A stretch of DNA of 64,000 bases from a virus (Duplodnaviria; Caudoviricetes): the IMG/VR virus record IMGVR_UViG_3300021425_002620. One strand, written 5' to 3'. The translations under genes and the position numbers were made by a program. Below are positions 8,301 through 63,519 of the stretch, piece after piece (the first letter of the stretch is position 1; each line of letters starts with the position of its first letter). The notes under the pieces were generated by a model. The model searched no databases and had not been told where the DNA came from. It saw nothing but the letters and a program-made list of their open reading frames with translations.

Positions 8301-11300
8301 TAACCTAAACGTCTACTTACATAACCACGTACTGCTGATTCTGTTGGAACAGTATCGTCAGCATTATCGCTCATTGCACTGTCTGTTGAGAATTCAGTAA
8401 CAACAACACCACGTTTAAATCCAATACCGTCAACATCTGAAAGTGCAATACTTGCCGCAAATGTAACTGTACCTGTACCTTGGTCAACTGTAAAGAATCT
8501 TCCAACTCGGAAGAAACCATCTTGGTCAGTACTTACATAGAACACACGACCTTTGTTACGTTCTTGTATTTCATTTTCTTGTAATGGTTGTGTGGAAGGG
8601 AAACCTAAAATAACATTCGGATAGTTACTTTGGTTAAACGATCCTGTACCAATATCAAGGAAGTCGTGGCCTGTTGCACGACAAGTTGAAATATCAATTG
8701 TAATTGTAGCAGGTGAACCATCTTGCAAGCCCGCACGTAGTGTAATGGTTCCTGAAAAGCCTTGTGTGAGTGGTCTAACAATACCAGTTGCCTGGTTTGT
8801 AATATTTGACTCTCTAATAATTTGTGCTGATGGAATTACAGGATCACCATTTTGATCTACCATTGCAGTCCATGAACCAGTAGCTGGATCTGGATCTGCT
8901 GGATCACCTTCCCAAACTTCTAAAGCACCAGTTGTGTTAAAGTTTACACCACTCCACTCGTATAATTTGATTTCGTCTGCTCTATTGCCTGCAATTTTAA
9001 CAACACCCCAAGCAGTTTGATTTCCTACCTGTCTAATTCTTGCTTCTGAAATCCCACCTAGATAAGATACTATTCTTGGAAATGTTGTTCTTAGAGGAAC
9101 ATCTTCGCCGTTAACATCAACTAAGTCAAACGTTAATTTAACTTCTTCAATTTCTTTAAGATCAACTACTGCAAATAAATGATTTTCGTTATATACTTTT
9201 CTTTGATCATTATATAAGTTAGTTGTATCATTAAAAACAAATTCTCTATAGTTATATACATAATGTTTCTTACCATTCCATACAATAACTTTAGGAAGCT
9301 CACCAGTAAAATCATAATTTCTACTACCGTCAGTTAACCCTGATGGTCTGTAGTTTGCATCTGTTAAGAAGTTGTTATTAATTCTCCAGATGTCTCTAAT
9401 TTCAGTTAGTTTATTAATTGCTATGCTTACATCACCTGTTGTGTTACCAAGTGTAGTTCCATTAATTGGAATTGATATTTGAGCTCCGTCAAAGTCTGCA
9501 GGTGTAAGATCAATTCTTTCTCTAGCAACATTTAATCTAATATAGTCATAGCCTGAATCAAAACCAACCAATGACTGATCAATATCTAACTCGCCGCCTG
9601 CAGAATCATTAGAACCAAAACTAATTGATCTATATGTGTATGCAAAGTCTTCTTGGAAATTAATTGCTGTACTTGGTCTAATAGTTAGATCGCCTGTACT
9701 TTCAATTTCAGAGAACGTATGTGTATTGTTTTGTCTAATTGTTAGATACTGTCCGGTTGGAATATCGGCTAGTAGACCGTCATTATCAAAAGTATCATTT
9801 GAAGTACTAAAGTTTGCCTTATACACTTGACCATTACGTAAAGGAGTATAGCCTGGAATTATATTAATATCACCAGAAATACTTAAACTTCTAATAGAAC
9901 CAGTATTAATGCCTAAGTCAAAATTTTCTCTACTTTGATTAATTCTAGTAACTGTTACTGTAGCATCGTGATTTGGTGCAGCACCGTCAGTGCCGCCTAG
10001 TTTGCTGCCTTTAATTGTAAATGTGTCGCCAACTTTATAATGTTCACCTTTTTCATTATTGAATATAGCTACATTATATTTTCCACCTTCTGCTCTTACT
10101 TTTGTAATAATAATTTGTGCTTCTGTAACTGCTGTTACTGGGTCTGTTTCGTCTATTGTTCTGTTAGCTGGATCATATTCGCCAAATGCTGTAGGCGAAC
10201 CCGATGGTCCTAAGTCAGCACAGTCAATTCTATATCCATCAACAGTAATTTCGTCTACAACTTCGATATTTGCTAGTTCATACCTTGCAATTCTATCTAA
10301 AGGTGTTGCACCATCAAAGTGATAATATTCAATTTCACCTTTGTTAGTTGGAATATGTTCTATTTCATACAAGTGTATTGCTAGTGATTCTTCTTTATTC
10401 TCATATGAAGTTGTGTCGAGTATAGCAATATCTACACCAGCTGCCGGTGTACCATTGATAATAATTTCTTCACCAACAGCATATGTTCCTGTAACATCTT
10501 TTAGGAATATCTGATTTCCTACTGTAGGGAATATTACTGTACCACTACCTGTGTTATTTGAGCAGGTAATTATATCATCAACTGCAACTGTTTGTTCTGT
10601 TGTTAATGTGAGTACAACCTGCGCACTAAATGTAACAGCACCTTGCACCATGTCATTTGTTGAAACAACATCATCTGGTACCTCGTTTGGATCACTACCT
10701 TCTGATACTAGTCCATAAACACCGTTAGCGTTTGAACCTGCTACAGAACGTATTTGTCCACCGTTACCTGCATAGTACGCTGTATGACAGTAGTATGTAA
10801 ACATAGATACCATTTCAGACAAGCCGCCGTTGATAGTAACAAGACCGTAACCTAAGTCGTTAACTTGTGTAAAGTCGTTACCTAACTGTGATCGGTTACC
10901 AGCAGTTTGTAGTGTAATATCGTATCCGTCTGGATACAATACAATGTTGGTTGGGTCTGGCTCAAATCCTAAAAACTCTGTTACATTATCTGGATTAATC
11001 TTACCTGAACGTGCATCAAGTACAAGCGTTGCAGTAGCAGGACCGTTAATACCACCTCTGTCATATTCAATAATATCATTAACCTGATATCTAATACCGT
11101 CAATATAAAACGGTGCAGGTGTTTGTGGTTTTCTAATATACAAGCCCGAATTCTTTTCTGCCTCAACTCTTAATCTAAAGTTATTAATTTTACTTGTAAC
11201 TTTCATCGGAGTGTTAGCACAGAAAGCATCAACTAACATACCACCTCTAAATGCTTGTCTGTTTAAAGTCTGAGAGAAACTTGAACCTGTTTGAATATAT

Positions 11301-15462: not shown

Positions 15463-15475
15463 TATTTAGTAAATA
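15463..15475. promoter_or_regulatory. Back-to-back T4-like late promoters (TATTTA-G-TAAATA)
   Basis: Perfect inverted repeat of the TAAATA box between divergent genes 15441(-) and 15499(+). Confidence 0.65.
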
Positions 15476-15498
15476 ATTGTTCCTATAGGAGGAAAATT

Positions 15499-15777
15499 AT
15501 GATAAATTGGTTAAAGAAACTTTTAGGTATTGGAACTTCAGATCCAGTTGTGCCAGCAGCAGAGCCTGCACCAGCTGTAGAGAAAAAGGTATCTAAGCCT
15601 AAAACTACTAAAAAATCCTCTGCCAAGTCTACCAAGAAAAAAGGCTCAGGCAAAGGTTGCGATTTTGATAAGTTAACTAAAACTCAACTTCTTAAAGAAG
15701 CAAAGCATAGAGGCGTTCCTGCCAATGCAAGTCTTAAGAAGGATGAAATTTTAGCTAGACTTAAGAGCGCGAAATAG
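15499..15777 (+). CDS. Lys-rich small protein with C-terminal Rho-N/HeH-like helix pair
   Basis: FDKLTKTQLLKEAKHRGVPANASLKKDEILARL; GGAGG SD. Confidence 0.65.
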   Translation: MINWLKKLLGIGTSDPVVPAAEPAPAVEKKVSKPKTTKKSSAKSTKKKGSGKGCDFDKLTKTQLLKEAKHRGVPANASLKKDEILARLKSAK

Positions 15778-25536: not shown

Positions 25537-25613
25537 TGGCGCGGCTGAAGAGATTCGAACTCCTGACCCTTGGTTTCGTAGACCAATGCTCTATCCAGCT
25601 GAGCTACAGCCGC
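25537..25613 (-). tRNA. tRNA-Arg(ACG)
   Basis: Cloverleaf GCGGCTG...CAGCCGC-G-CCA, anticodon arm TTGGT-CT-ACG-AA-ACCAA, TTCGAAT T-loop, encoded CCA. Confidence 0.95.
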
Positions 25614-25623
25614 GTAAAATAAT

Positions 25624-25652
25624 ATTATAGTTGACTTTCATCTAAATGTCAA
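25624..25652 (-). promoter_or_regulatory. Internal sigma70-type promoter for tRNA-Arg and the sulfotransferase gene
   Basis: TTGACA-N17-TATAAT between tRNA-Cys and tRNA-Arg. Confidence 0.75.
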
Positions 25653-25655
25653 CCA

Positions 25656-25729
25656 TGGAGTGAGAGGTGAGAATCGAACTCACATACAAGGATTTGCAAT
25701 CCTCTGCGTAACCATTCCGCCACTCTCAC
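25656..25729 (-). tRNA. tRNA-Cys(GCA)
   Basis: GTGAGAG...CTCTCAC-T-CCA, anticodon arm GAGGA-TT-GCA-AA-TCCTT. Confidence 0.95.
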
Positions 25730-25734
25730 ATAAT

Positions 25735-25811
25735 TGGTCGGGGATGCAGGATTCGAACCTGCGACCTTTCCGCCCCAAACGGAACGCACTCCCAGACTGT
25801 GCTAATCCCCG
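25735..25811 (-). tRNA. tRNA-Pro(TGG)
   Basis: CGGGGAT...ATCCCCG-A-CCA, anticodon arm TTCCG-TT-TGG-GG-CGGAA. Confidence 0.95.
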
Positions 25812-25885
25812 TGGCATAGGTGGAGGGAGTCGAACCCCCGCTTGCAGTTTTGGAGACTGCCGTGCTACCATAACACTTCACCCAT
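25812..25885 (-). tRNA. tRNA-Trp(CCA)
   Basis: ATGGGTG...CACCTAT-G-CCA, anticodon arm GCAGT-CT-CCA-AA-ACTGC; position 8 is A rather than the usual U. Confidence 0.92.
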
Positions 25886-25917
25886 AAAAAAAGCCCCTTG
25901 CTTTCGCTTGGGGCTTT
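25886..25917 (-). terminator. Intrinsic terminator (attenuator 3:4 hairpin) abutting tRNA-Trp
   Basis: AAAGCCCC-AA-GC-GAAA-GC-AA-GGGGCTTT followed by T run (7 T in total), ending right at the tRNA-Trp 5' end. Confidence 0.9.
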
Positions 25918-25967
25918 CTCACGTACTCAAATATCACGTCAAGACAAGCCCCTACCTCTTGGCGGGC
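25910..25967 (-). promoter_or_regulatory. Attenuator alternative hairpins (protector 1:2 and antiterminator 2:3)
   Basis: 2:3 = GGGGCTT-G-TCTT-G-ACGTG (25952-25935) pairs with TACGT-GAGA-AAGCCCC (25925-25910); 1:2 = GCCCGCC-AAGA-GGT-AG-GGGC (25967-25948). Confidence 0.85.
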
Positions 25968-26001
25968 ACCAACGAAAATTTGTTGTAACTGTCTTGAACA
26001 T
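25939..26001 (-). CDS. Attenuator leader peptide MFKTVTTNFRWCPPRGRGLS (20 aa)
   Basis: Hand-translated; AAGGA SD; control codons CGT TGG TGC CCG CCA at 25974-25960; TGA stop lies inside the antiterminator 5' arm. Confidence 0.85.
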   Translation of the reverse strand: MFKTVTTNFRWCPPRGRGLS

Positions 26002-26030
26002 GTAAGTATCCTTTTGTTTAGTATGTTACT

Positions 26031-26059
26031 ACTATAGTATCAGTATTTAGCTTTGTCAA
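26031..26059 (-). promoter_or_regulatory. Sigma70-type promoter of the leader/tRNA operon
   Basis: TTGACA-N17-TATAGT, with a late-like CTAAATA inside the spacer. Confidence 0.8.
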
Positions 26060-26067
26060 CCATTATT

Positions 26068-26196
26068 TTAAGATGCAGCGTAAATTATAAATACCGGTAG
26101 CATTAAAATTAGTGCTGGAACTGCCGTTGCCGATATTGCCTCACAAATTTCGCAAACTGATCGATTATTTTTTAATCTAATTATCAAGTCCGTCAT
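26068..26196 (-). CDS. Small membrane protein (42 aa, MTDLIIRLKNNRSVCEICEAISATAVPALILMLPVFIIYAAS)
   Basis: Hand-translated; CxxC followed by a hydrophobic helix; last of a chain of overlapping micro-ORFs. Confidence 0.55.
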   Translation of the reverse strand: MTDLIIRLKNNRSVCEICEAISATAVPALILMLPVFIIYAAS

Positions 26197-26338
26197 TAGT
26201 TTTGTTTTCTCCTGTATGTCTGTGTTGTCGTTCGGCTTCTCTCATTGCTAGAACATATCTTAGATCATGCATAGGAGCATATTTTAGGTAAACAAAAGAA
26301 ACAATTATACAAGCAATAAAAATTAAGAATTCTATCAT
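26177..26338 (-). CDS. Small membrane protein (53 aa, MIEFLIFIACIIVSFVYLKYAPMHD...)
   Basis: Hand-translated; GGAGG SD and ATGA overlap. Confidence 0.6.
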   Translation of the reverse strand: MIEFLIFIACIIVSFVYLKYAPMHDLRYVLAMREAERQHRHTGENKTNDGLDN

Positions 26339-26448
26339 TCCTCCTCCTCATCCTGCATTGGTTGTTTCCTCCATTGCCAACCTGTATTCCAAGGTAGTAT
26401 CCAATAATGAAAAAACCATTCTGCCCAACTTTTTTTCTGTGTTATCAT
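26335..26448 (-). CDS. Trp-rich microprotein (37 aa, MITQKKSWAEWFFHYWILPWNTGWQWRKQPMQDEEEE)
   Basis: Hand-translated; GGAG SD, ATGA overlaps on both sides. Confidence 0.55.
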   Translation of the reverse strand: MITQKKSWAEWFFHYWILPWNTGWQWRKQPMQDEEEE

Positions 26449-26552
26449 AGTGGATTTACTCCGTATAAAGTCATCAAAAAAATACTCACTAGAAATCCTA
26501 CTTCAATACGATCTCGTAGTGTACTTTCGTCTAACAGTTTTTTTGATTTCAT
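26445..26552 (-). CDS. Small membrane protein (35 aa, MKSKKLLDESTLRDRIEVGFLVSIFLMTLYGVNPL)
   Basis: Hand-translated; first of the micro-ORF chain. Confidence 0.5.
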   Translation of the reverse strand: MKSKKLLDESTLRDRIEVGFLVSIFLMTLYGVNPL

Positions 26553-26646
26553 TTATAATTAGTAGTTATAATATATTATAATCATATATTATGTTTTTCA
26601 CGCTTATTTATCATTTAGAATAAAAAAACAGTAGAAAACTGGTAGT

Positions 26647-26925
26647 TTAAATATTATCAGGCGGAGCATAGGTTTCAGCAAGAGGTTTGTAACTTGCAGG
26701 ATATTTAGACAACGTTAATTGTTCACCGTCCCAAATGCACCAAATTGAAGGACGCACACCTACTTTAAATTCATGTACTTCGTAATCTCCTAAGAGAGAC
26801 TCAGGAAGTATATTGCCTTTGCGATCTCGCATTGGCCCTGTTCCACTAATGTATGTAACCTGGGCACTACCCCATCTATTCCACGCTTCATCAACTAGAT
26901 CAAAGCAGTCTGTCATGTGTTCCAT
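26647..26925 (-). CDS. Hypothetical protein
   Basis: AAGGA SD directly after tRNA-Ala. Confidence 0.6.
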   Translation of the reverse strand: MEHMTDCFDLVDEAWNRWGSAQVTYISGTGPMRDRKGNILPESLLGDYEVHEFKVGVRPSIWCIWDGEQLTLSKYPASYKPLAETYAPPDNI

Positions 26926-26939
26926 ACTATTTCCTTATT

Positions 26940-27015
26940 TGGTGGAGCCGACAGGGGTCGAACCTGCGACCTTCTGGATGCAAACCAGACGCTCTCCCAA
27001 CTGAGCTACGGCCCC
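26940..27015 (-). tRNA. tRNA-Ala(TGC)
   Basis: GGGGCCG...CGGCTCC-A-CCA with G3:U70, anticodon arm TCTGG-TT-TGC-AT-CCAGA. Confidence 0.95.
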
Positions 27016-27021
27016 TTAAAC

Positions 27022-27097
27022 TGGTGCCGGATGCAAGAGTCGAACTCGCGACCTTCTCATTACAAGTGAGCTGCTCTACCAACTGAGCTAATCCGGC
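27022..27097 (-). tRNA. tRNA-Thr(TGT)
   Basis: GCCGGAT...ATCCGGC-A-CCA, anticodon arm GCTCA-CT-TGT-AA-TGAGA (G27-A43 mismatch). Confidence 0.92.
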
Positions 27098-27098
27098 T

Positions 27099-27173
27099 TT
27101 ATCTTTTTACTCTACAATTAGGACAAAAGTCATTGTATCCTAACTCTGTCTTACATTCTGGACAAGTATTCAT
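27099..27173 (-). CDS. Zinc-ribbon microprotein (24 aa, MNTCPECKTELGYNDFCPNCRVKR)
   Basis: Hand-translated; AGGA upstream, two CPxC motifs, fills the tRNA-Ser/tRNA-Thr spacer. Confidence 0.65.
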   Translation of the reverse strand: MNTCPECKTELGYNDFCPNCRVKR

Positions 27174-27193
27174 ATTTTACTTATCCTAGTTTT

Positions 27194-27283
27194 TGGCGGA
27201 GAGTGAGGGATTCGAACCCTCGATACGCTTTCACGTATGCACCCTTAGCAGGGGTGTGCTTTCGACCACTCAGCCAACTCTCC
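27194..27283 (-). tRNA. tRNA-Ser(GCT)
   Basis: GGAGAGT...ACTCTCC-G-CCA, long variable arm, anticodon arm CACCC-CT-GCT-AA-GGGTG. Confidence 0.95.
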
Positions 27284-27344
27284 AATTACACTCCTAGTTT
27301 ATCAGTCTAGTGCAAGTTGCTATGCTTCCTGCTGAGTGTAAAAT

Positions 27345-27420
<76 letters not shown>

Positions 27421-59898: not shown

Positions 59899-60417
59899 TT
59901 ATTTTTCCCATCGGTAAAATATATGATCTTCAATTTCGATTGTTTTAGTTTTAGTTTTAGCCCATGCAGGCATTACATAATCTGCATGGTAGTGAGTTGC
60001 ACCTTCGGTAATATCTACTACAGTGATTTCACCTCGTACAACAAGTGCGGCTAAACTATAAATCTCATTATAGACTTTTTGGTCATAGATAGTATCAGCC
60101 TTGCCATCGCAATACCAACTAAACTGGCAACGATTTCGTACAGGAATCATTTCTCCTGTGCCTTTCCAACTGGGTCGAGTTGGACCTTGTTTTACAACTT
60201 CACAAACTGTATCAGGATATCTGTCATCTTGAACCCTATTTGATGTAACTGCAATAACTGCTAGTCGTCCAGCGGTTCCCTGTCCACGAGCTTCGTGATA
60301 GACGTTTTGAGCCATACACTCAACTTGTTTTTCTAACCACACGTTGTCTGATGTTTTTGCTTCGTTGACGGGTGATACTGAAAGGATAGTTGTTAGAATA
60401 ATTTCAGAAATAGTCAT
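59899..60417 (-). CDS. Cell-wall hydrolase (SleB/Hydrolase_2 family)
   Basis: CMAQNVYHEARGQ, NRV..DRYPDTVCEVV, CQFSWYCDG, GATHYHA, IEDHIFY. Confidence 0.93.
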   Translation of the reverse strand: MTISEIILTTILSVSPVNEAKTSDNVWLEKQVECMAQNVYHEARGQGTAGRLAVIAVTSNRVQDDRYPDTVCEVVKQGPTRPSWKGTGEMIPVRNRCQFSWYCDGKADTIYDQKVYNEIYSLAALVVRGEITVVDITEGATHYHADYVMPAWAKTKTKTIEIEDHIFYRWEK

Positions 60418-61248: not shown

Positions 61249-61740
61249 TCAACCTTTTTCTTCCATTAATTTTACAGCCGCATCATAATCTTCTTGTTTG
61301 ATTACACCTTCGCGCAATAGTTTTGCTCTATTGGCTTCGTGTTTCATTTGCACTTCTTCTTTGCTTCCGCCAAAGTATGCAACTGCATGTCCTTCTTCAA
61401 TAAGAATATCTGTAACTTTTGCCCAGCGATCGTGTGTACCATCGTAAACTCTAAAATCACCTAAGATACGTCCGAACTTGCCTTTCATATCTTCGCCTTT
61501 GCGATCTTCTGTGGTAATAAGTTTGCCACCGTTCTTCATAAGTTCCTTTAGTCTTGCCTTTGCGGCTTCACCAAATAGATCTTCTACTTTGTCTCTTGTT
61601 CTCGATTCTGGAGTGTCAATGCCCATAATACGAACACGTTCGTCTTTTAAACATACGCCAAATCCTAGATCAATATCTACATCAACTGTGTCGCCGTCGA
61701 CGACTTTTAATACAGTAACATCATACTCGTTTTGTGTCAT
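61249..61740 (-). CDS. Thermonuclease (SNase-like)
   Basis: VVDGDTVD, RVRIMGIDTPE, KGKFGRILG, LIEEGHA. Confidence 0.9.
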   Translation of the reverse strand: MTQNEYDVTVLKVVDGDTVDVDIDLGFGVCLKDERVRIMGIDTPESRTRDKVEDLFGEAAKARLKELMKNGGKLITTEDRKGEDMKGKFGRILGDFRVYDGTHDRWAKVTDILIEEGHAVAYFGGSKEEVQMKHEANRAKLLREGVIKQEDYDAAVKLMEEKG

Positions 61741-61840: not shown

Positions 61841-62236
61841 TTAGAACGAGAATGTAGCTGTTGCTGTGATCTCGCCACGCTCTTCTGCTTCTAGGTCATA
61901 TGATGTGCCTAGTTCTAGTTCTACATTGTCCATCATTGCTGGTACATATGTTGCACCAAACTTTAGTGTTGGTAGAGTGTCGAACTCGTCACCCAGTGTG
62001 AAACCACCATCGTTGTCCCATACTGATAGAGTTGTGTCAGCTGTTAGGCTTAGTGGACCGTCAACCATTGGTTGCCACTCTAGTTCTGGTGTGATTGTTA
62101 GTGTAGTTGCTTCTGCATCAAACTTGTGCTCTGCTACTACGTCTGTGTTTAGCGCCAAACCTGGAACTGGTAAGTCCATGGCTGTCGCTGATGTTGCAGC
62201 CATTGCGGCTACCATTGCTAATACTGCTGTACGCAT
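61841..62236 (-). CDS. Small secreted outer-membrane beta-barrel-like protein
   Basis: Signal peptide (ATA-MD), alternating beta-strand pattern, C-terminal TATFSF. Confidence 0.7.
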   Translation of the reverse strand: MRTAVLAMVAAMAATSATAMDLPVPGLALNTDVVAEHKFDAEATTLTITPELEWQPMVDGPLSLTADTTLSVWDNDGGFTLGDEFDTLPTLKFGATYVPAMMDNVELELGTSYDLEAEERGEITATATFSF

Positions 62237-62396: not shown

Positions 62397-62999
62397 TTAA
62401 AACTTTACAGCAAAAGCCACTAGTGCTTCTCTGTCTACTTTGTTAAAGTCCGCATCCATTGTTTGCATTACTGCTACTGAAACTACAGTGTTTGATGTAA
62501 CGCTGAACCTTGTGCCAACTTTTCCATAACTGTCTGACTTACGAAAATCTAGAAAATTTCCATCATCTGATTTGAAGTCATAACCTAATTCGACAAAAGG
62601 AACTAAGACTGAAATGTTTCTTAATTCAATTCCTGCATATGGACTAAGCAATAGTTCACTACCGTCAATTGAATCGCCAAAGTCGAAATGTGCTTCTGCT
62701 GCACCATATCCTGTAAAAGCACCTAATGGAACTTCACCGCGTGTTGACACGTTGATACGGTAATCCTGTACACTGTTGTCATCAATAATTTGAACGCCAA
62801 CATTTACAGGTCTGTTTACTGTGAATACACCTAGCCTACGTGAGTCTGCTGAAAAATCACGAGAAGCGCCTGTACCAAGCGACACTCCAAATTTTTCACC
62901 ATGAGCTGACACATATACTCCGGTATTATCAAAGTCGTCTGCTAAAGCAGAAGTAGTTAGGCCAAAAAACAAGCCTAATGCTAATATAATATTTCTCAT
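62397..62999 (-). CDS. Outer-membrane beta-barrel protein (start MRNII)
   Basis: Signal peptide (ALA-DD), amphipathic strands, C-terminal VAFAVKF. Confidence 0.75.
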   Translation of the reverse strand: MRNIILALGLFFGLTTSALADDFDNTGVYVSAHGEKFGVSLGTGASRDFSADSRRLGVFTVNRPVNVGVQIIDDNSVQDYRINVSTRGEVPLGAFTGYGAAEAHFDFGDSIDGSELLLSPYAGIELRNISVLVPFVELGYDFKSDDGNFLDFRKSDSYGKVGTRFSVTSNTVVSVAVMQTMDADFNKVDREALVAFAVKF

Positions 63000-63087
63000 T
63001 TTATTATTTCCTTTATTTTTGTTTGCCACCTGGCAAACACAATACTTACTTATGATGGATAACTATTTTTATGTTTAATTCTGGCAG

Positions 63088-63113
63088 AAAAGAAAAGCAC
63101 CCGAAGGTGCTTT
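63088..63113 (-). terminator. Intrinsic terminator after tmRNA
   Basis: AAAGCACC-TTCG-GGTGCTTT then TCTTTTC (UUCG loop). Confidence 0.85.
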
Positions 63114-63114
63114 C

Positions 63115-63480
63115 CTGCTATTTTTGGTAACAAGGTATAACTACCCCGTAGCGATCACGCCGCTAATGCAAAGTTTTCGTTTGCGTTTGTTTTGTTTCTT
63201 GCGTTAACCGAGCTTGCGCCGGACAACTCCACTCATCTATGCCGTGTATCGATCCTAGTTCGCCCCCATCATAAAAACACTATCCACAACACTTTGGCTT
63301 TTGTCTGCCTGCTCTCCAAGCACGGAAATCGATAACCCATTTCGTCACACACATTCCTAGTAGTGCGGCTAAACTTGTGTATTGTATTCCTGTCCAAATT
63401 AATGCCATTATAGTGTCCTTATGGTGGAGGCGCCGGGTACCGCCCCCGGGTCTACTCCGTCGTCAAATTGCTTCAACATT
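63115..63480 (-). ncRNA. ssrA: Circularly permuted two-piece tmRNA (alphaproteobacterial type)
   Basis: Acceptor piece ends GACCCGGGGGCGGTACCCGGCGCCTCCACCA (3' end 63422); coding piece starts GGGGGCGAACTAGGATCGA at 63267; tag reading frame ANENFALAA-TGA at 63184-63155; outer ends approximate. Confidence 0.93.
63280..63408 (-). CDS. 42-aa putative membrane peptide inside the tmRNA intervening segment (MALIWTGIQYTSLAALLGMCVTKWVIDFRAWRAGRQKPKCCG)
   Basis: Hand-translated; TAAGGA SD 7 nt before ATG, immediately after the acceptor CCA. Confidence 0.6.
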   Translation of the reverse strand: MALIWTGIQYTSLAALLGMCVTKWVIDFRAWRAGRQKPKCCG

Positions 63481-63486
63481 GTATAT

Positions 63487-63519
63487 TATTTATAACACAC
63501 TCAGACCGAGTAAGTCAAG
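63487..63519 (-). promoter_or_regulatory. Composite promoter of tmRNA: perfect late box TATAAATA (63494-63487) with TTGACT upstream
   Basis: Read directly; overlaps the stop of the upstream ORF. Confidence 0.7.

Follow-up and report, generated by a model that had tools for sequence, protein, structure and literature searches.

A candidate small protein gene in the intervening segment of a permuted marine phage tmRNA, and signs of a slot shared by diverse small genes

Can the intervening segment of a two-piece tmRNA, treated as throw-away RNA, be the seat of a protein gene? The question is raised by a locus in the window (the whole stretch of 64,000 nucleotides of phage DNA that was analysed), where an ORF for a peptide of 42 residues, MALIW...KPKCCG, fills the 154-nt spacer between the two pieces of a permuted tmRNA. 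Two-piece tmRNA of the Alphaproteobacteria was reportedly described by Keiler, Shapiro and Williams in 2000, and the window gene resembles the two-piece tmRNAs of Alphaproteobacteria and marine phages in its acceptor piece, intervening segment (IVS) and coding piece, its G3.U70 pair and its tag ending in ...ALAA. The comparisons described here indicate that such segments do carry selected protein genes and that they form a widely used slot in marine phages. We put at roughly three in four (0.75) the probability of our preferred reading, namely that the spacer loop carries a real gene for a 42-residue peptide and that the spacer is a generic cargo slot which borrows the tmRNA promoter.

The tmRNA transcription unit

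ARAGORN identifies a permuted tmRNA with the tag ANENFALAA at 63064-63514 on the minus strand. The same locus scores 91.1 bits with the Rfam model tmRNA_permuted (RF04321; gathering score 47) and 78.6 bits with alpha_tmRNA (RF01849; gathering score 50). The acceptor piece lies upstream of the coding piece, which gives the permuted alpha-type order, and both Rfam alignments contain a long insertion between ...CCUCCACCA and GGGGGCGAA. On a reading of the sequence, pairing of GGGGGCG with CGCCUCC provides the G3.U70 alanine identity pair; this pair, a CCA end and a tag frame ending in ...LAA are all present, as in a permuted alpha-type tmRNA. The tmRNA, spacer, ORF, Shine-Dalgarno (SD) sequence and stem described in an initial annotation of this DNA were all found where it had placed them (Table 1).

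The promoter, as read, has the form TTGACT-N18-TATAAAT (63518-63488) and is sigma-70-like, with a -10-like element that overlaps the stop codon of an upstream 104-aa gene. In relatives, TTGAC(A/T), a gap of about 17-18 nt and TATAAAT recur upstream of the acceptor piece, and the sequence of the gap diverges. A consensus promoter scanner did not call the window tmRNA promoter because its -10 hexamer ends in A. At the other end, the terminator-like hairpin is the end of the tmRNA transcription unit. We conclude that the window tmRNA gene, which belongs to a large marine phage, is a self-contained unit of about 385-400 nt, made up of a sigma-70-like promoter, acceptor piece, spacer, coding piece and terminator. 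A blastn search of the locus against isolate phages returned a 40-nt acceptor match in Rhodobacter phage RcRudolph and nothing else, and the tmRNA region is absent from the nearest virus record compared, G001 (29% shared words).

Table 1. Features of the permuted tmRNA unit and its spacer, in window positions
Feature	Position	Strand	Basis
-35-like hexamer TTGACT, inferred tmRNA promoter	63513..63518	-	sequence reading and recurrence in relatives
-10-like TATAAAT, inferred	63488..63494	-	sequence reading; kept in relatives
tmRNA acceptor piece, 3' half of tRNA-like domain and T arm, ...CGCCUCCACCA	63422..63483	-	RF04321 match from 63483; ARAGORN
Acceptor-piece CCA	63424-63422	-	sequence reading
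Intervening segment (IVS), 154 nt, not in mature tmRNA	63268..63421	-	Rfam insertion and sequence reading
5' strand of closing stem (CAUAAGGACACUAU), includes SD AAGGA 63420-63416	63410..63423	-	RNAfold
42-codon gene (MALIWTGIQYTSLAALLGMCVTKWVIDFRAWRAGRQKPKCCG) and TAG stop	63280..63408	-	ORF list, comparison of homologs
3' strand of closing stem (AUAGUGUUUUUAUG), includes TAG 63282-63280	63270..63283	-	RNAfold, covariation
tmRNA coding piece, 5' acceptor strand GGGGGCG	63114..63267	-	ARAGORN, Rfam; 3' end approximate
Tag reading frame ANENFALAA*	63184-63155	-	ARAGORN
Terminator-like hairpin, then T-run	63094..63113	-	hairpin finder; T-rich tail by sequence reading

Coding character and position of the spacer ORF

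An AAGGA motif precedes the ATG of the spacer ORF by 7 nt. By its length alone the ORF is weakly supported. About 23% of dinucleotide shuffles of the segment contain a 42-codon ORF somewhere, and about 6% of shuffles of the window spacer contain a start-anchored, loop-filling ORF; neither result is significant (p about 0.06-0.23). Shuffling of ORF length in a single sequence being uninformative in this sense, comparative tests were used instead. An exact-pattern scan of IMG/VR with an acceptor 26-mer gave 117 loci. One relative, L114, has the window's IVS with three substitutions, two of them synonymous; protein searches supplied a more distant copy of the ORF on a TARA contig (P0001/L119), and back-translated scans of metagenomes and viral contigs supplied 15 more ORF loci. 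The homolog set comprises 18 loci with 12 distinct ORF DNAs, from marine viromes and metagenomes.

The frame is intact in all 12 distinct ORF sequences, each with an SD sequence and ATG, and AAGGA or AGGAG stands 5-8 nt before the ATG at every one of the 18 loci, in both of the genomic positions that the gene occupies. Variable sites among the 12 variants (33 in all) are distributed over codon positions 1/2/3 as 8/2/23 (binomial p=2e-5), and several of those at the first position exchange one Leu codon for another. Averaged over pairs, dN is 0.029 and dS 0.408, a ratio of 0.07 that rests on a shallow tree, all homologs being 88-100% identical in protein. For spacer-type pairs only, the window differs from L119 by dN 0.074 and dS 0.87, and from L127 by dN 0.031 and dS 0.64. 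Nucleotide identity of the ORF is 83-98%, compared with 58-88% for the flanking acceptor and coding pieces. Third-position bias, low dN/dS and an ORF more conserved than its flanks together imply selection on the protein rather than on RNA structure and, as far as sequence comparison can tell, purifying selection acts strongly on the spacer ORF, which is a genuine gene. The initial annotation had claimed a protein-coding gene in the spacer and had proposed its conservation in related phages as the check. The dN/dS of about 0.07 and the third-position bias bear out the claim, and frame, SD and ATG are kept in all spacer-type relatives.

The same gene is found in two arrangements. In nine sequence variants it lies in the IVS. 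In L125, L126, L128/L134 and L130/L131 its start lies 13 nt beyond the full-length alpha_tmRNA match (L125:1501-1629, L128:1501-1629 and L130:1501-1629 for the 42-codon gene), and the IVSs of the tmRNAs with this 3'-placed gene are 29-92 nt long and hold no loop-filling ORF. The tmRNAs of L127 and L128 are near-identical, with the gene in the IVS of the former and at the 3' end of the latter, implying that a small cassette moved within the tmRNA locus. Neither layout leaves room for a separate promoter, and the peptide mRNA is therefore expected to be part of the tmRNA primary transcript. On the layout of these loci, then, the gene is always a physical part of the tmRNA transcript, whether it is nested in the spacer or joined to the 3' end of the tmRNA. 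The proposal that the precursor or the excised piece doubles as an mRNA agrees with this, the ORF being transcribable only within the tmRNA precursor. Horizontal spread of the ORF cassette between diverged tmRNAs was considered and rejected: synonymous divergence (0.26, for instance, between the window and L120) resembles tmRNA divergence, so that vertical descent with purifying selection suffices.

The closing stem and other occupants of the spacer

How is the ORF related to the stem that encloses it? The 10-bp pairing proposed at the outset is confirmed, and RNAfold lengthens it to 14 bp (63423-63410 with 63283-63270) in a window IVS fold with an MFE of -43.6 kcal/mol and z = -3.1. At their shortest, the IVSs of this phage tmRNA lineage consist of a hairpin and nothing more, as in the 29-nt TAAACACA-loop-TGTGCTTATGAT. 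Over 90 unique phage IVS stems, 84% of positions are paired in register, compared with 32-59% when the strands are shifted, and stem positions 3-11 show several compensatory pair types. Spacers without an ORF, those of 29 nt included, also have the covarying stem. From this covariation the closing stem is best read as an ancestral, selected processing hairpin of the tmRNA precursor, the long IVSs representing enlarged loops. It is not a device built for the window ORF, which sits in its loop.

Only in the window's sub-lineage does the SD sequence lie inside the stem. Here the 5' strand, UAAGGACAC, doubles as the SD by means of G.U pairs, with a predicted unpaired probability of 0.01. The diverged homolog L119 has UAAACACACUA as its stem, with both the SD (AGGAG) and the AUG in the loop (predicted unpaired 0.68 and 0.90); where the gene follows the tmRNA, the folds (L125, L128, L130) have no stem closing the ORF. 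The TAAGGA architecture recurs in many other IVSs, the 3' strands of which covary to match. Matches to the 14-mer CTCCACCATAAGGA in a scan were mostly due to chance, and a match was retained only if a coding-piece motif of tmRNA followed it downstream. The description of the SD and stop codon as locked in the closing stem holds for the predicted fold of the window, where both are within it, but the stem itself is ancestral and is shared with spacers that have no ORF.

The window ORF is far from the only one of its kind. Unique IVSs from the loci compared form 36 sequence clusters of at least 85 nt, and these were surveyed for an ORF starting within the first 30 nt and running to the loop end or beyond. 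Such a start-anchored, loop-filling ORF is present in 29 clusters, whereas shuffles predict 5.6 and the reverse strand has 5; a value of 29 was not attained in any of 200,000 simulated draws. Every one of the 17 clusters that measure at least 130 nt has such an ORF, and most of the ORFs in the census have a recognisable SD. The cargo peptides, of 20-68 aa, are mutually unrelated; basic, Cys-rich, coiled-coil-like and hydrophobic types occur and many are soluble. In five cargo families that include diverged members, a third-position bias is seen and dN/dS is 0.13-0.4. One of the cargo families, with 62 residues (L156:244-429, L186:1723-1908 and L251), occupies spacers of about 200 nt and has a dN/dS of 0.13; with its hydrophobic N-terminus and conserved cysteines, it looks from its sequence like a small secreted or membrane Cys-rich protein.

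One of the five families with diverged members, made up of basic peptides in the spacers of L046, L071, L104 and L070, matches phrog_16066 (E=7e-10). Its free-standing homolog is an unannotated 53-codon ORF of Puniceispirillum phage HMO-2011 (L118:1495-1656; NC_021864.1, about 15465-15626), located between the ribonucleotide reductase (RNR) gene and gp19, and no tmRNA was found in the region around it. Ten further cargo peptides had no match in PHROGs. We conclude that the spacer in related phages is, to judge from these ORFs, a commonly used slot for diverse small genes, and the diversity of the cargo together with the free-standing homolog favours a generic slot over a dedicated link with trans-translation. 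The suggestion that the function of the window peptide is coupled to tmRNA processing fares poorly here, since unrelated cargo peptides, many of them soluble or basic, share the slot in other phages.

In about a dozen cargo ORF families the reading frame extends past the RNase P site, and its stop codon is the UAG of GGGGGCGAAAUAG, which belongs to the 5' end of the mature tmRNA (L046, L049, L068, L075, L104, L147, L207 and others). These ORFs end in GGGGGCGAA(A/C)UAG, for which the equivalent window position is 63267-63255; the window ORF itself stops before the RNase P site. With a stop codon beyond that site, cleavage would leave non-stop mRNAs. One spacer of a different kind, in L042 (about 8330-8440 on the minus strand, 110 nt), has no ORF and contains a T-arm-like GGTTCGAATCC; ARAGORN called no tRNA in it.

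Expression, possible functions and known systems

A trace of the transcript may be present in the marine metatranscriptome run X15, in which a 171-nt contig corresponds to 63243-63413, spanning the whole ORF and the coding-piece junction with its RNase P site, and bears exactly the L114 substitutions. Word depth in X15 is 3.5 for this ORF contig, 7.9 for a contig over part of the coding piece and 2.7 for the upstream gene. Most other metatranscriptome contigs corresponded to conserved portions of the tmRNAs of other organisms, and the X15 contig is the only one to cover the ORF. The X15 contig is weakly indicative at best: it is compatible with an unprocessed precursor, but it is shallow and could derive from DNA carry-over.

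How might such a gene be expressed? Small genes in the spacer would borrow the strong early promoter of the tmRNA, and the conserved tmRNA flanks, which may act as recombination arms, probably favour the exchange of cargo between phages. The SD is almost fully paired in the fold of the window lineage, implying that translation from the mature fold should be poor. Ribosomes could load on the SD of the nascent RNA, while the 3' strand of the stem, about 130 nt further on, is still to be transcribed. Translation would end at the TAG within that strand, the stem would then close and bury the SD, and the closed stem would present the junction to RNase P and to 3'-end trimming, with release of the two tmRNA pieces. 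Translation from the precursor or from the excised segment may provide an additional or alternative route. The locus may offer a natural case of competition, on a single transcript, between translation and the processing of a stable RNA. A stronger proposal is that the precursor is a bifunctional RNA, that translating the spacer ORF precludes tmRNA maturation and vice versa, and that non-stop cargo products are tagged by the same tmRNA; to this we give little credence. If it were true, the stem would permit only a brief burst of co-transcriptional translation, and the dose of peptide would follow the rates of tmRNA transcription and processing; the non-stop cargo mRNAs made by RNase P would set up a self-referential feedback between a ribosome-rescue RNA and the gene nested within it.

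The peptide itself offers few clues. AlphaFold2 predicts a single helix for residues 3-36 of the 42-aa window peptide (pLDDT 78). Residues W5, W24, W31, C20 and the C-terminal KCCG are invariant in the homologs. The initial annotation had described a hydrophobic N-terminal helix and a basic, Cys-containing tail. The tail is as described, with a net charge of +5 from K23 onwards, but the hydrophobicity of the helix is moderate, with a best Kyte-Doolittle score over 19 residues of 1.46, just short of the 1.6 usually required for a membrane span. Searches with the window peptide gave no Pfam match at E<=1, and it is thus not assigned to S23p (PF05635); PHROGs gave one marginal match, to phrog_19977 (E=0.003), a family of unknown function. 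Nothing significant was found by tblastn against isolate phages, and no relative among 185,579 prokaryote genomes; no look-alike in the ESM Atlas reached a useful score. Among 1.8 billion representative proteins, HMMER matched P0001 alone, a predicted gene on the TARA contig whose frame extends through the acceptor piece. As to a type I toxin, no Rfam antitoxin RNA was found in the window and no toxin-family match for the peptide; as to a holin, Pfam and PHROGs gave no holin-family match, and the gene shares the tmRNA promoter and does not adjoin the endolysin-like gene. Action at the host membrane is plausible and would be the most likely one for the peptide, though its hydropathy score leaves membrane location uncertain.

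Several known systems combine some of these elements. The 23S rRNA intervening sequences with an S23p ORF in Coxiella burnetii and Leptospira (PMC4990558) likewise consist of a stem-closed segment that is excised from a stable-RNA precursor, leaves a two-piece mature RNA and has a small ORF inside. The likeness is architectural only: the S23p ORF is unrelated to the window peptide, the segment interrupts helix 45 of an rRNA and not a tmRNA, RNase III excises it, and the tmRNA slot carries many different cargo genes. The S23p ORF is moreover reported to be unexpressed in vivo and decaying (PMC4990558), whereas purifying selection on the window ORF is strong. Group I introns with homing-endonuclease genes occur in the T-loop of tmRNA genes (PMC11915505), and here too a protein ORF lies within a segment removed from the tmRNA precursor. 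In contrast, the window has no intron (no Rfam intron match), self-splicing fold or endonuclease, and its segment is released by end-processing of a permuted gene. Dual-function RNAs such as SgrS/SgrT and RNAIII/hld join a functional RNA and a small peptide in one transcript, and in hok mRNA, 5'-3' pairing is a fold-back regulation of a toxin, hiding the SD until the RNA is remodelled. The window transcript would share these features, but in dual-function RNAs the peptide ORF is inside the functional RNA, whereas the window ORF is in the discarded part, and the counterpart of the hok-type long-range pairing is the conserved tmRNA processing stem.

The literature on two-piece tmRNA treats the IVS as non-coding, in contrast with the selected gene that the window IVS appears to carry. 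Phage-borne alpha-type tmRNAs are known from marine myophages, such as Melnitz, in the description of which the spacer is unmentioned (PMC9004378). A 2025 census of tmRNA (PMC11915505) draws attention to two spacers, of which one holds a full tRNA gene and the other a repetitive element; spacer ORFs are unmentioned in it. Searches of the openly accessible literature gave no report of a protein gene in the intervening sequence of a tmRNA. Such spacers open a new place in which hidden small phage proteins may be sought, as annotators pass over ORFs within an RNA gene, and long spacers deserve a mark as potentially coding in tmRNA gene finders and databases.

What, then, of explanations other than a gene in a generic slot? 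The extreme alternative is that nothing is encoded, and that the segment is a conserved RNA structure for folding or processing of the tmRNA in which the frame is incidental. The segment does fold better than its shuffles, and the length of the ORF alone is not significant; yet the concentration of substitutions at third positions, with the synonymous Leu changes, and the conservation of the same ORF outside the spacer are contrary to it, as are spacers of 8-30 nt, which show that the content of the loop is dispensable for the tmRNA. We regard this explanation as scarcely tenable. A silent hitchhiker, that is, an ORF untranslated in the spacer like the S23p ORF of the Coxiella 23S rRNA IVS, is also very improbable. 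Its closest analog is indeed reported not to be synthesised in vivo and to be decaying (PMC4990558), the SD is buried in the predicted fold, and the support for expression is the shallow X15 contig. Decay would, however, give frameshifts and stops, and intact cargo ORFs are present in the 29 of 36 independent clusters; frame, SD and ATG are kept in 9/9 spacer-type variants, pairs at dS 0.6-0.9 included, with dN/dS about 0.07.

Two further readings accept the gene and differ over its role. The peptide could be membrane-active and resemble a type I toxin or a holin, made from an mRNA that is silenced by a hok-type fold-back until a set time, and acting by depolarisation, phage exclusion or the timing of lysis. 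This would suit the one long predicted helix, the +5 C-terminal tail and the aromatic residues W5, W24 and W31, the sequestration of the SD by pairing of the two ends, and the presence of an endolysin-like gene and two signal-peptide proteins within 3.5 kb downstream. We nevertheless find it doubtful. Hydropathy is under the usual threshold for a membrane span, there is no Pfam toxin or holin match and the marginal phrog_19977 is uninformative, no antisense RNA was identified, and the endolysin-like gene is about 2.9 kb away with other genes between; the early-type sigma-70-like promoter is shared with the tmRNA and does not suggest lysis-cassette expression, and the fold-back stem belongs to the tmRNA, not to the gene. 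Alternatively, peptide and tmRNA may be functionally coupled, the peptide working with or reporting on trans-translation so that its output times or senses tmRNA processing or, in a variant, modulating a membrane protease, such as FtsH, that handles tagged proteins. Persistent linkage of the 42-codon gene to the tmRNA transcript, in 18/18 loci and in both arrangements, keeps such coupling alive, and the SD and stop within the processing stem of the window lineage and the non-stop mRNAs expected upon cleavage from about a dozen other cargo ORFs are in its favour. But the linkage may be plain synteny, the stem is older than the ORFs, and the SD is outside the closing stem in L119 and in L125, L128 and L130. 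The many unrelated peptides, basic, soluble, Cys-rich or hydrophobic, in the same slot, and the one family that is also free-standing where no tmRNA was found, count further against coupling, which we consider unlikely.

Finally, and as context only, the neighbourhood of the tmRNA unit has some features of its own. Directly downstream, and on the same strand, are genes for proteins of 210 aa (62397-63029) and 131 aa (61841-62236), each with an N-terminal signal-peptide-like sequence and a C-terminal Phe. Neither has a match in Pfam or PHROG; in sequence they are reminiscent of outer-membrane beta-barrel proteins. An endonuclease gene (61252-61740 (-), phrog_452, E=1e-28) and an endolysin-like gene (59902-60417 (-), phrog_938, E=1e-23) lie a few kb downstream, the latter separated from the tmRNA unit by five other ORFs. 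Elsewhere in the window, at 25537-27420 (-), eight tRNA genes (Arg, Cys, Pro, Trp, Ala, Thr, Ser and Asn) lie on the tmRNA strand.
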